Shown one piece after another: positions 5,685 to 8,997 of a DNA stretch of 25,140 nt. The translations under genes and the position numbers were made by a program. This stretch comes from a virus (Duplodnaviria > Caudoviricetes): positions 1 to 25,140 of IMG/VR virus record IMGVR_UViG_3300043400_000002. One strand, 5' to 3'. The stretch's first letter is position 1; every line of letters starts with the position of its first letter. The notes beneath the pieces are model-generated. The model made no database searches. It was not told the origin of the DNA and saw only the letters and a program-made list of their open reading frames with translations.

Positions 5685-7409
5685 ATGACTTACATCGATC
5701 CAATTACCGCTTGTGATTTCTACAAAGTAGGCCACAAAGCTATGTATCCTACAGGTACTGAAGTTATCTATAGTAATTTCACACCTCGCTCTAATAAACT
5801 TGCACCAAGTGCTGCTGGCGTAAAACCAAACAAAGTACTGTTTTACGGTTTGCAAGGTTTCATCAAGTCGTTCCTAATTGAACAATTTAACGAGAACTTT
5901 TTCAACCGTACAAAAGAAGAAGTAATTGCTAAATACAATCGTCGCATGAACACTTCACTTGGTCAAGGTTCTGTAGATGCTTCACACATTGCAGCTTTGC
6001 ACGATCTAGGTTTTCTACCAATTGAAATCAAGGCACTACCTGAAGGTTCACTTGTAGATATCAAAGTCCCTGTTCTTACTGTAAAGAATACACTACCTGA
6101 ATTTTTCTGGTTGACCAACTATCTAGAAACCGTATTCAGTAATGAACTGTGGAAACAAATCACTACAGCCACAACTGCATTTGAATACCGCAAAATTCTT
6201 ACTCGTTTTGCTAAAGATACTGGCGCTCCTTTGGACTTTGTACTTTGGCAAGGTCACGACTTCAGTTATCGTGGTTTGAGTGGTGTTGCTGATGCTACAA
6301 GCGCCAGCGGACATTTGGTTTCATTCCTTGGTACTGACACTATTCCGGCTATTGACTATCTGGAAGCTTACTACGGTGGTTTGAATACATTTGTAGGTGG
6401 TTCTGTTCCTGCTACAGAGCACTCAGTGATGTGTGCAGGTGGTAAAGAAACTGAAGAAGACACTTTCCGTCGATTGATTACAGAAGTACATCCTTCTGGT
6501 GTAGTTAGCATTGTTAGTGATACTTGGGACTTCTGGCACACTCTGACTGTTACATCTGCAAATCTGAAACAAGAAATCTTGAATCGCACACCTAATGAGA
6601 TTGGTCTAGCTAAAGTTGTATTCCGTCCTGATAGCGGTGATCCTGCGGATATTCTTTGTGGTACTGAAGTAATCGTTGCTGAATCTCTAGATAAAGCTGA
6701 GGAATTTGTACAAGACTGTGTTATGGCTGAGAATGCAGATTTGACTGCTTATGAATGCGGAGCTTCTTCTTATACACAAGTAGTTAAAGTAAAAGACAAA
6801 TACTATAACTTTACTGTGTTTCCAGAGTGGAATCGTCACGATAAAACTTACTATTATATCGATGGTTGGAACATGCCTATGATTGAAGAAATTCAACTAA
6901 CACCTACACAAAAAGGAGCTGTAGAATGCTTGTGGGATATTTTTGGTGGTACAATCAACGCTCAAGGTTACAAGATGCTGAACGAGCGTGTAGGCTTGAT
7001 TTATGGTGATTCAATTACTCTTGATCGTGCTGAGGATATTTTGCGTCGATTGAAAGAGAAAGGTTTCGCATCCAGTAACATTGTGTTTGGTGTAGGTTCT
7101 TACACATATCAGTATGTAACCCGCGATAGTTTCGGTTTTGCTATGAAAGCAACATACGCTGAAATCAATGGTCAAGCTACTGAATTGTTCAAAGACCCGG
7201 TAACAGACGGTGGAACTAAAAAGTCAGCCAAAGGTCTATTGCGAGTTGAACGTGAAGGTGATAATTTCGTCCTTTATGATCAGCAAACTAAAGAGCAAGA
7301 ATCTCAGGGTTGCTTGCAGACAGTATTCAAGGATGGTGTTCTTGTGAAAGAAACAACTCTTGAAGAAATTCGAAAATTAGTTGACCAACAGCTTGAAACT
7401 GTGGTATAA
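5685..7409 (+). CDS. nadV: Nicotinamide phosphoribosyltransferase-like protein (probable NARP1 Namat)
   Basis: DFYKVGH, HDFSYRG, GTDT, PATEHSVMC, SIVSDTWD, RPDSGDP, IYGDSIT, GVGSYTYQ, RDSFGFAMKAT, KDPVTD...KKSAKG; SD AAGGAG. Confidence 0.93.
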   Translation: MTYIDPITACDFYKVGHKAMYPTGTEVIYSNFTPRSNKLAPSAAGVKPNKVLFYGLQGFIKSFLIEQFNENFFNRTKEEVIAKYNRRMNTSLGQGSVDASHIAALHDLGFLPIEIKALPEGSLVDIKVPVLTVKNTLPEFFWLTNYLETVFSNELWKQITTATTAFEYRKILTRFAKDTGAPLDFVLWQGHDFSYRGLSGVADATSASGHLVSFLGTDTIPAIDYLEAYYGGLNTFVGGSVPATEHSVMCAGGKETEEDTFRRLITEVHPSGVVSIVSDTWDFWHTLTVTSANLKQEILNRTPNEIGLAKVVFRPDSGDPADILCGTEVIVAESLDKAEEFVQDCVMAENADLTAYECGASSYTQVVKVKDKYYNFTVFPEWNRHDKTYYYIDGWNMPMIEEIQLTPTQKGAVECLWDIFGGTINAQGYKMLNERVGLIYGDSITLDRAEDILRRLKEKGFASSNIVFGVGSYTYQYVTRDSFGFAMKATYAEINGQATELFKDPVTDGGTKKSAKGLLRVEREGDNFVLYDQQTKEQESQGCLQTVFKDGVLVKETTLEEIRKLVDQQLETVV

Positions 7410-7410
7410 T
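7381..7410 (+). promoter_or_regulatory. sigma70-like promoter for the tRNA/ncRNA array
   Basis: TTGACC (7381-7386), 18 nt spacer, TATAAT (7405-7410), extended -10 TG; overlaps the Nampt stop codon and lies 9 nt before the first RNA gene. Confidence 0.75.
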
Positions 7411-7419
7411 TAAGGTTAA

Positions 7420-7498
7420 GCGAGTGTACCGGAACGCTCTTCTAAAGCGTAGTACCGTAATGGAGTCAATGGGGGTTCGAATCCCTCCACTCGCACCA
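7420..7498 (+). tRNA. Non-canonical (D-armless) tRNA-Arg(UCU)
   Basis: Acceptor GCGAGTG/CACTCGC + A-CCA; T-arm GGGGG-TTCGAAT-CCCTC; anticodon arm ACGCT-CTTCTAA-AGCGT (TCT at 7441-7443); only 7 nt between acceptor and anticodon stems; 20-nt extra region. Confidence 0.8.
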
Positions 7499-7504
7499 AA
7501 CAAT

Positions 7505-7606
7505 GTAACTGTAGCTCAGTTGGTAGAGCAGGAACCTCTTCACGGTGAAGGACCAAATGCCAGAGGGTAAACCAAGCCGATGGTTCGAATCCATCCAGTT
7601 ACACCA
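7505..7606 (+). ncRNA. tRNA-like RNA with enlarged non-canonical anticodon arm (no assignable anticodon)
   Basis: Acceptor GTAACTG/CAGTTAC + A-CCA; D-arm GCTC-AGTTGGTA-GAGC; T-arm GATGG-TTCGAAT-CCATC; 43-nt arm 7531-7573 instead of 17 nt. Confidence 0.8.
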
Positions 7607-7610
7607 AAAC

Positions 7611-7700
7611 GGACAAATTGAAATGATCATCTGATGCTGATGTGAAACTTCCTAATAGCATAGGAGGAAAATGAGAGTTTGATTCTCTCTTTGTCCACCA
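7611..7700 (+). ncRNA. tRNA-like RNA: acceptor and T-arm with two internal hairpins
   Basis: Acceptor GGACAAA/TTTGTCC + A-CCA; T-arm GAGAG-TTTGATT-CTCTC; hairpins CATC/GATG (7628-7642) and CTTCCTA/TAGGAGG (7648-7667). Confidence 0.72.
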
Positions 7701-7703
7701 ATT

Positions 7704-7771
7704 TAAGATGAAGATATTGGTTCGATTCCAATCTTGTGAAAGTAGTTTAATATGGACAAACATTCATCTTA
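7704..7771 (+). ncRNA. Circularly permuted tRNA mimic (T-arm before D-arm; YrlA Y-RNA-like topology)
   Basis: Closing stem TAAGATGAA/TTCATCTTA; T-arm ATTGG-TTCGATT-CCAAT; mini acceptor CTT-GTGA-AAG; TA; D-arm GTTT-AATATGGAC-AAAC. Confidence 0.72.
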
Positions 7772-7782
7772 TTCATAAATTA

Positions 7783-7968
7783 GTCCCGCTTATGCCTGTT
7801 GCTCACATCCCTAGAGTTAGCGGCACACTTCAAGCGCCATATGAGCATAAATCTTGCCGCATATGGGTAAAACATACGAGTGATGGTGGACTTCGTATGC
7901 GGATTTTCTAGACCAAAGGATCGTCGTCCGGATGTAACAAGACACTATAATACCTGTTTAGGGACAGG
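7783..7968 (+). ncRNA. Putative structured RNA with pseudoknot
   Basis: Helices ACATCC/GGATGT, CTAGAG/TTCTAG, CATACGA/TCGTATG, and crossing helices GCGGCA/TGCCGC and CCATAT/ATATGG; boundaries uncertain. Confidence 0.55.
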
Positions 7969-8087
7969 AGTTATAGTTCAGTATATTTCAGGTTGGGTAA
8001 ACGAACGTGGTTTACTATTTGGGATGACAAATCAGGCGTTAATCTGAGGGGTAGCATCTAAGATACGGAATATGCTGAACTATGACT
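7969..8087 (+). ncRNA. Putative ~120-nt three-way-junction RNA
   Basis: 21-bp closing stem 7969-7989/8067-8087 (three G-U pairs) enclosing two hairpins; ends 1 nt before the tRNA-CAU. Confidence 0.62.
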
Positions 8088-8178: not shown

Positions 8179-8997
8179 ATGAAAAACTTATTGATCGGTT
8201 CACAAGCGTTACAATACTGGAGTGCTACCTTCAAAGCAAAGCCAGATTCAGATTCAGATTGGGATATTATCAGTGAACATAAGATAACTGACGATATAAA
8301 ACGCATTGAGCATCATACGTTTGATCAGGTCGGTAACTATGATCTGCTAAACTATGCAAGTACGCATTGGATTGAAATTGCAGGTCAAAGAGTTTACGTA
8401 GTTAATCCTATTGGTCTTACTATTGTAAAGCGTAGTCATCTGTGGCGTGATCGCAAGTTTGAAAAGCACATGACGCAATACAATATGCATTTAAAGACAT
8501 ATCGTGAATTCTTTACAGATAAGGATGAAGATGTACTAAATAAGCGCATCAAGCTTACTATGTCAGAATACCCACAAGGTAATCCAAACTTGATGCAAAC
8601 AGTAGAAGATTTCTTTGATGATGCAGTAACTAAGAAGTACAATCATGATTACTTACACGAGTTGTTTGCTTACCATGAAGAGCCCTTGTATAAAAAATTA
8701 CAAAAAGATTCGAGTTTAGCTTGGTGTGACAAAAATCTGTGGTACAATCTAAATCATGTAGACAAACTTAGATGCATTGCAGAGGAAGCTTATGTTATTT
8801 CAACCGAAAGGTTCTTAGTACCTAGCGATTGGACTACACCAGCTAAACTAGCGTTTTACAAGTCGGTCAACAAGATTTGTACTACACTATGTTCAGGTTG
8901 GTTTCGTGACTATGCAATTGACAACTATACAGAAGTCTTGGATATGTTTGATACTGCTAAGGTTGAGAATGTTAAACAAATTTTACTAAAGGAGTAA
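8179..8997 (+). CDS. Putative Pol-beta-superfamily nucleotidyltransferase-like phage protein
   Basis: Start moved to ATG 8179 (SD AAGGAG; the track start 8131 lies inside the tRNA). N-terminal LIGS...DSDWDII matches the hG[GS]-x(n)-DhD NTase signature. Confidence 0.6.
   Translation: MKNLLIGSQALQYWSATFKAKPDSDSDWDIISEHKITDDIKRIEHHTFDQVGNYDLLNYASTHWIEIAGQRVYVVNPIGLTIVKRSHLWRDRKFEKHMTQYNMHLKTYREFFTDKDEDVLNKRIKLTMSEYPQGNPNLMQTVEDFFDDAVTKKYNHDYLHELFAYHEEPLYKKLQKDSSLAWCDKNLWYNLNHVDKLRCIAEEAYVISTERFLVPSDWTTPAKLAFYKSVNKICTTLCSGWFRDYAIDNYTEVLDMFDTAKVENVKQILLKE

Follow-up and report, generated by a model that had tools for sequence, protein, structure and literature searches.

A conserved tRNA-shaped RNA in phage tRNA clusters, predicted to retain the tRNA elbow and lacking an anticodon arm

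The tRNA-like domain of tmRNA and the YrlA-type Y RNAs present the upper half of a tRNA, and their D region is reduced or rearranged. In phages, the stable RNAs encoded in or near the tRNA clusters of T4 and T5 are still listed as being of unknown function. RNAC and RNAD of T4 are late RNAs (PMC9697503), and the T5 record AY543070 annotates RNA1 and RNA2 as "tRNA-like stable RNA with unknown functions" and RNA3 as "putative tRNA-like RNA." Allo-tRNAs and the tRNAs of irregular polycistrons have non-canonical cloverleafs, some with five-stem junctions, and some of them are not employed in translation (Mukai et al., PMC5389517). Canonical tRNAs close their elbow with the contacts G18–Ψ55 and G19–C56 (PMC7609411), and in the Alu domain found in signal recognition particle (SRP) RNA, two loops are joined by three base pairs in humans or five in B. 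subtilis (PMC4231752). Here, we describe an apparently undescribed family of phage RNAs that is a small case of this kind with a covariation-supported structure, including a tertiary pair.

The locus and the distribution of the family

The window, i.e., the whole stretch of 25,140 nucleotides that was analyzed, is a 25-kb virus record with genes for phage replication, NAD salvage, lysis, and the tail. Its RNA cassette, for which the best nucleotide match is Limnohabitans phage DC31, lies between a nicotinamide phosphoribosyltransferase gene and a DUF7275 gene. The predicted promoter upstream (Table 1), which has a promoter-like motif at the same site in relatives, likely transcribes the element within a precursor. 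The content of the cassette varies among the 21 relatives compared, and the element is accessory, with 12 of these 21 close relatives having a copy. The copies are distributed over two sites in the cassette, the second of which is taken in DC31 by another tRNA-like RNA.

Table 1. Coordinates of the predicted promoter and of the parts of the element in the window
Feature	Position	Strand	Basis or remark
Putative sigma-70-type promoter, TTGACC, 18 nt, TATAAT	7381..7410	+	11/12 consensus match, extended TG
Whole tRNA-shaped RNA gene, 90 nt, short subtype	7611..7700	+	Sequence, fold, alignment
Acceptor 5′ strand	7611..7617	+	Pairs G1-C, G2-C, A3-U, C4-G invariant, 28/28
Mini D-hairpin, loop U-G-N-N	7617..7624	+	Closing pair T7618-A7623; possible second pair A7617-T7624
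Hairpin 1: 4-bp stem, 7-nt loop TGATGCT	7628..7642	+	3/4 pairs covary, with changes on both sides
Linker YGAAA, conserved	7643..7647	+	1 minor-allele cell in 140
Hairpin 2: 6-bp stem and 8-nt loop AATAGCAT, alternatively 7 bp and 6-nt loop	7648..7667	+	5/6 pairs covary, with changes on both sides
T arm, loop TTTGATT	7673..7689	+	T stem covaries; T7680 = position 56, partner A7621
Acceptor 3′ strand, discriminator A7697, encoded CCA	7690..7700	+	Discriminator A in 28/28

Among the 52 member loci of the family, ARAGORN placed a tRNA in the locus in 50, a CCA occurs within 15 nt upstream in 43, a called tRNA lies within 50 nt in 42, and base –1 is U in 43. The U at –1, the upstream CCA, and the nearby tRNAs fit a route in which the element would be transcribed together with the neighboring tRNAs and its precursor would be cut by RNase P and trimmed at the 3′ end, as in tRNA maturation (PMC10424219). 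These features, together with G+1, the encoded CCA, and the kept elbow described below, could also belong to a mere processing signal for RNase P cutting of the cassette transcript. We consider this improbable, because true tRNAs with cut sites are already close by in most loci and because the invariant loops and acceptor sequence would be left unexplained.

Several other parts of the cassette were recorded alongside the element. Positions 7420–7498 of the window hold a tRNA-Arg(TCT)-like gene. It has no D arm, and its variable region contains a conserved stretch with GG, which gives the impression of a D-loop displaced to 3′ of the anticodon arm. Its counterparts are L001:2885–2963 (DC31), L002 at approximately 1497–1574, and copies in L359 and L371; the design also occurs, unannotated, in Pseudomonas PAK_P2-like phages, and close relatives have a normal tRNA-Arg at this site. 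In DC31, a 5′ fragment of the first tRNA-like gene is duplicated, and an HNH-like gene (L001:2540–2885) separates this fragment from the full copy, which suggests an insertion at the tRNA start. At 7505–7606, and likewise in L006 and L013–L015, there is a tRNA whose acceptor, D, and T arms are normal and whose anticodon arm is enlarged and branched; the ARAGORN call of Arg(acg) for it appears questionable. L003, L016, and L338 have a related design in which the insert differs. Positions 7704–7772 form a 9-bp stem around a perfect T-arm-like hairpin (7713–7731), followed by a GG-containing loop, and the folding of this region is unremarkable (z –0.69). YrlA-type RNAs have T before D, an order that 7704–7772 resembles, and a T-like hairpin similar to 7713–7731 is found within the DC31 tRNA-like RNA at L001:4510–4604. 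A conserved structured RNA at 7780–7965, present in nearly all relatives, combines fixed motifs with swappable modules; some of its pairs covary, and it gave no Rfam match. Positions 7971–8085 encode a long, very stable hairpin RNA (z –6.2), the outer stem of which is kept among relatives while the interior is exchanged, in some of them for a tRNA. Immediately downstream of the cassette, 8179–8997 encodes a DUF7275/DUF7277 protein of 272 aa. Its N-terminal GS...D-x-D pattern is presumably of the type found in nucleotidyltransferases; the family searches returned DUF7275/DUF7277 only and did not confirm a nucleotidyltransferase. In L005, L011, and L013–L015, an initiator-like tRNA-Met(CAT) with an aberrant T-loop, not called by ARAGORN, precedes the DUF7275 gene.

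The family comprises 28 IMG/VR contigs and 24 metagenome records, some of the latter being the same contigs as viral members. Together they give 28 distinct sequences that are 63–99% identical, 10 of 90 nt and 18 of 91 nt, and the alignment of all 28, including that of the window, needed only one gap column. Among the carriers are DC31-like phages as well as contigs of 214–385 kb. Diverged copies were first exposed by a loop-based pattern. A scaffold-only pattern in which both loops were free gave 28 viral matches, all of them members, and 41 matches in metagenomes, 24 of them members. The acceptor was left unconstrained in two viral scans, which recovered the same 28 viral contigs: the loop-only scan gave 34 matches (28 members and 6 non-members), and the scan with both the kiss core and the acceptor free gave 75, of which 28 were members and the other 47, lacking the stems, were not. 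No variant with an altered GCU/AGC core was found among those 75 viral matches, and none of the two viral scans and the scan of GTDB genomes found the two-hairpin payload outside the tRNA chassis. Two further patterns were set aside. The exact hairpin-1 pattern was too unspecific, matching at least 121 stretches, with only 3 members among the matches listed, and the first scaffold pattern gave 119 loci that were chiefly chance matches or true tRNAs. Because the patterns were derived from known members, the scans may have passed over more distant relatives, and pattern-fixed columns, GAAA above all, may look more constant than they are. A CCA-ended sister RNA, which shares the chassis (UGG directly after the acceptor, and C56) and differs in its two-hairpin payload, is located at L012:2074–2157, L343:612–694 (minus strand), and L362:598–680, and also in L327 and L346.

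The searches of described sequences gave the following results. A BLAST search with the element as query across 50,697 phage records matched 55 of them, none of them with 80% coverage, so no named isolate in this collection has the element; among the matches listed, nearly all were 3′-end matches to T5-like tRNA-Ala. Rfam has no family for it, with only RF00005 matching weakly (23.7 bits against a gathering threshold of 29) and the middle left unaligned, and ARAGORN called neither a tRNA nor a tmRNA on the element. None of the 11 matches of the pattern scan in GTDB genomes was a member. The yjdF riboswitch, a cis element in bacterial mRNA leaders, was likewise rejected as an identification, because the element is CCA-ended and lies between tRNAs and because no GTDB match proved to be a member. 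In the literature covered, which largely leaves out the older papers on the T5 RNAs, we found no published account of the family. The accessible text on DC31 (PMC12195039) mentions six tRNA genes only, and four motifs and six contig ids are absent from the readable supplements of PMC10690425, among whose 10,006 candidates the family may nevertheless be included. Family members were present in the contigs of two of four RNA-library runs (X3 and X9, from two studies); these contigs extend past the element into flanking sequence, and no RNA ends are visible in them. The element was not covered in X1 and X2, a result that does not speak for its absence there.

Structure, covariation, and sequence constraint

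A sequence-only reading of the window had proposed a CCA-ended tRNA-like RNA gene in which a 7-bp acceptor with A-CCA and a T arm with the loop TTTGATT enclose two hairpins. Sequence and fold place each of these parts where that reading had put them, and covariation in all internal stems backs the proposal; the two "internal loops" of which it spoke are both hairpin loops. The four-arm fold is the minimum free energy structure (–24.1 kcal/mol, z –2.49), and 2 of 200 shuffled sequences were equally good. The acceptor (7611–7617/7690–7696) and the 5-bp T stem (7673–7677/7685–7689) stack to 12 pairs in the window; in the 18 longer variants, the acceptor stem is irregular, with U-U or bulged bases. 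The family model scored the element at 105.7 bits, a value to be read with the element being part of the training set.

Across the 28 sequences, 98.8% of the 756 cells were paired, compared with 40–58% in the slid controls, and none of 500 shuffles reached so high a value. Changes on both sides were present in 14 of the 27 pairs, including three of the five pairs of the T stem (for hairpins 1 and 2, see Table 1). A reading frame is open in at most 12 of the 28 members. This stem covariation, together with the lack of a more widely open frame, indicates that the element is under selection as RNA. An origin as a decaying tRNA pseudogene or a protein-coding by-product is scarcely credible: although the last 33 bases resemble the tRNA-Ala of T5-like phages and a 54-codon minus-strand frame overlaps the element, compensatory changes have accumulated in every internal stem at identities down to 63%, and no frame extends across the family. 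In T5, the family model matched only true tRNAs, at no more than 28.5 bits, with tRNA-Phe (28.5 bits) alongside the best tRNA-Ala (28.4 bits). The phage tRNA-Tyr genes in L055 and L096 share the first six acceptor pairs and A73 with the element, so that tRNA-Ala is only one of the candidate ancestors.

Directly behind the acceptor stem, the mini D-hairpin has a standard pair between columns 8 and 13 in 27 of the 28 sequences, with three pair types, and a pair between columns 7 and 14, also in 27. G7620 in its loop is invariant and may play a G18-like role, and A7621, the third loop base, is the equivalent of position 19. This column (column 11) is Watson–Crick complementary to T-loop position 56 (column 70) in all 28 sequences, as U-A in 20, A-U in 6, and G-C in 2; G at position 19 and C at position 56 are thus each found in only 2 of 28. 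Among 3,828 column pairs, 11–70 is the only non-helix pair that is strictly Watson–Crick with at least two pair types. On a tree from which these two columns had been left out, and in which resolution is weak (6 of 25 inner branches are starred), they changed four times, always together and with no mismatch, and both columns were unconstrained in the family-wide patterns. We therefore predict that the elbow pair 19–56 is kept, in the window as A7621–U7680.

The sequence-only reading had concluded that the elbow contact was lost. It was right that there is no GG in a normal D-loop and that a T replaces C56, but T7680 is matched by A7621 in a mini-hairpin that it had overlooked. Because position 56 covaries with column 11, the T-loop substitution is better described as a compensated change. 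Its wider proposal of a minihelix-type mimic that has no elbow and is held by kissing loops would accommodate the missing GG, the rarity of C56, and a loop complementarity over 5 nt in 24 of the 28 sequences. It is contradicted by the repeated joint change of columns 11 and 70 and draws no help from loop–loop compensation, of which there is none, so that we regard it as very improbable.

The complementarity of the two hairpin loops is nevertheless real. TGCT (7635–7638) and AGCA (7657–7660) are present in the sequence and can be extended to 5 nt. In this register, G7636–C7659, C7637–G7658, and U7638–A7657 never vary, and each of the two outer pairs is broken in 2 of the 28 sequences and compensated in none; loop–loop covariation, which had been offered as a check, was thus found in none of the five loop pairs. 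If the register is shifted by three bases, the pairs form in 28, 27, 2, 26, and 28 of the 28 sequences, and this second register better accommodates the repeated A-to-C and U-to-C changes. Taken by itself, the match is modest: random 7-nt and 6–8-nt loops of local composition have at least four complementary bases in 4–7% of cases and at least five in 0.6–1.1%. On this evidence, we put the odds of a kissing loop between hairpins 1 and 2 at about even. Within the loop of hairpin 1, the last three bases, GCT, are invariant and variants occur in 4 of 28 sequences; in hairpin 2, L361 has lost the innermost A-U pair and retained its U. Neither hairpin is an anticodon arm, for which a 5-bp stem and a 7-nt loop with U33 and a purine at position 37 are expected: hairpin 1 has a 4-bp stem with G at position 33 (A in one sequence) and C at position 37, and the loop of hairpin 2 has 6 or 8 nt.

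The distribution of sequence changes is uneven. Minor-allele cells make up 21% of the stems and 2.4% of the two hairpin loops, so the loops are approximately nine times more conserved than the stems, and this conservation could be caused by pairing, by protein binding, or by both. In acceptor pairs 1–4 and the discriminator, there was no minor-allele cell in 252, even though the discriminator was unconstrained in the search patterns. Constraint of this kind is a sign that both the acceptor end and the loops are read sequence-specifically, and the invariance of the acceptor end while the other stems drift suggests that a protein reads it. The linker may form a U-turn or a T-loop-type motif; its invariance is partly selected, because GAAA was set in every family-wide pattern. 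The core of the hammerhead ribozyme has CUGA-N-GA and GAAA flanking stem II. A hammerhead was rejected for the element because CUGA has C in place of its A in 2 of the 28 sequences, GC stands in place of GA, and there is neither a stem II nor an Rfam match.

Possible roles of the element

We propose, with a probability of roughly 0.4, that the element is a conserved, non-decoding, tRNA-shaped phage RNA that keeps the upper half of the L, including the predicted elbow, and acts as bait for a host protein that recognizes tRNAs. This proposal is based on the intact upper half, the lack of an anticodon, the sequence-fixed acceptor end, and the exchange of the element between phages. After maturation, the two hairpins would be packed side by side, perhaps through a GCU/AGC kiss of 3–5 bp, giving a compact lower half in which no anticodon is free. 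As bait, the mature RNA would tie up a host enzyme reading both the acceptor end and the elbow, most plausibly a tRNA-attacking defense toxin or a synthetase, and the real tRNAs would thereby be spared during infection. The swapping among relatives and sites fits an arms-race gene. Among described systems, the toxSAS FaRel2 relies on the acceptor stem to select tRNAs, which it modifies at the CCA end (10.1101/2024.07.05.602228), and the tRNA-Lys of T5 counters PARIS (PMC11464382). In the latter case, the countermeasure is a non-cleavable working tRNA rather than a decoy, and the word "decoy" is absent from that paper.

The conservation of the loops speaks against a bait, and the lower module, rather than the tRNA half, may be the working part. 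In a second, doubtful reading, the tRNA half is a chassis for maturation and stability, and the two-hairpin module is an aptamer that binds a protein or the ribosome, folded similarly to the SRP Alu 5′ domain. The far greater conservation of the loops and linker than of the stems favors this reading, as does the sister RNA that combines the same chassis with another payload in the loci given above, and the Alu domain, whose helices 3 and 4 are connected by a short loop, itself resembles tRNA (PMC4231752). However, the sequence invariance of acceptor pairs 1–4 and the discriminator goes beyond the needs of a chassis, the linker is YGAAA instead of UGU, and no covarying closing helix is present. 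Additionally, no SRP family matched at E values up to 10, and the scans found the payload only on this chassis. A more speculative and unlikely extension is that lytic phages use the upper half of tRNA as an exchangeable chassis, the payload of which is here a self-kissing, Alu-like second elbow. Such a double mimic might block a tRNA-targeting defense enzyme or sit on a ribosomal factor site in a host group whose SRP has no Alu domain.

The acceptor end and the elbow also bear on a possible role in aminoacylation. A synthetase that ignores the anticodon, such as LeuRS or SerRS, might charge the element, which would then serve as a non-decoding amino-acid carrier or an EF-Tu ligand. A73 is invariant, the D/T contact is kept, and the acceptor and T arm form the 12-pair stack in the window. 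E. coli tRNA-Leu without its anticodon and variable arms is still leucylated given A73 and the D/T contacts, and serine identity comes chiefly from the long variable arm (PMC9976931). In contrast, leucylation needs G18G19, A15–U48, and A20a (PMC9976931), of which G19 is rare in this family, and serine identity favors G73. Furthermore, the alanine signal G3–U70 (PMC9976931) is replaced by A3–U70 in all 28 sequences, and the U-U or bulged acceptor bases of the longer variants would not suit a carrier. We consider this role rather unlikely, and the bait reading remains our preferred one.

The invariant acceptor end and loops pinpoint the bases to mutate, so that a role as a phage tRNA mimic is testable. 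Genes such as this one are missed by ARAGORN and by the Rfam cut-offs, and phage tRNA clusters therefore likely hold more of them.

Comparison with known systems

The element differs from each of the described RNAs that it resembles. Allo-tRNAs have an 8/4 or 9/3 acceptor branch and an anticodon arm (PMC5389517), whereas the element has a 7/5 or 6/6 branch and no such arm. Unlike tmRNA, it is only 90 nt long and has no tag frame and no G3–U70. Unlike YrlA, its parts stand in the normal tRNA order, and there was no YrlA match on 7611–7700; a Ro60/TROVE gene was found in none of five carrier records, two of them complete, in a search whose control was positive in 2 of 14. A CCA-adding enzyme (PF01743) was also found in none of the five carrier records. 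The resemblance to the SRP Alu 5′ domain, i.e., two hairpins, a short conserved turn, and loops able to pair over 3–5 bases, is an architectural analogy only, since the element has no UGU, closing helix, S domain, or Rfam match.

T4 RNAC and RNAD are, by description, of the same broad kind as the element, the sequence comparison having covered the T5 RNAs only. With local alignment scores of 16–24, the element shows no sequence kinship with T5 RNA1–3, but like them, it is a tRNA-like gene inside a phage tRNA cluster. Compared with canonical tRNA (RF00005), it has no anticodon arm, and its D arm is a tetraloop hairpin of 1–2 bp (some variants reach 4 bp) in place of a 3–4 bp D stem with a G18G19 loop behind a 2-nt connector. 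It shares with canonical tRNA the acceptor, the discriminator, the CCA, the T arm, the predicted 19–56 pair, and the placement among tRNAs. The element thus appears to be a minimal rebuild of the elbow, in which a tetraloop sits directly behind the acceptor stem and the G19–C56 pair is free to become U-A or A-U, as it has in most members.
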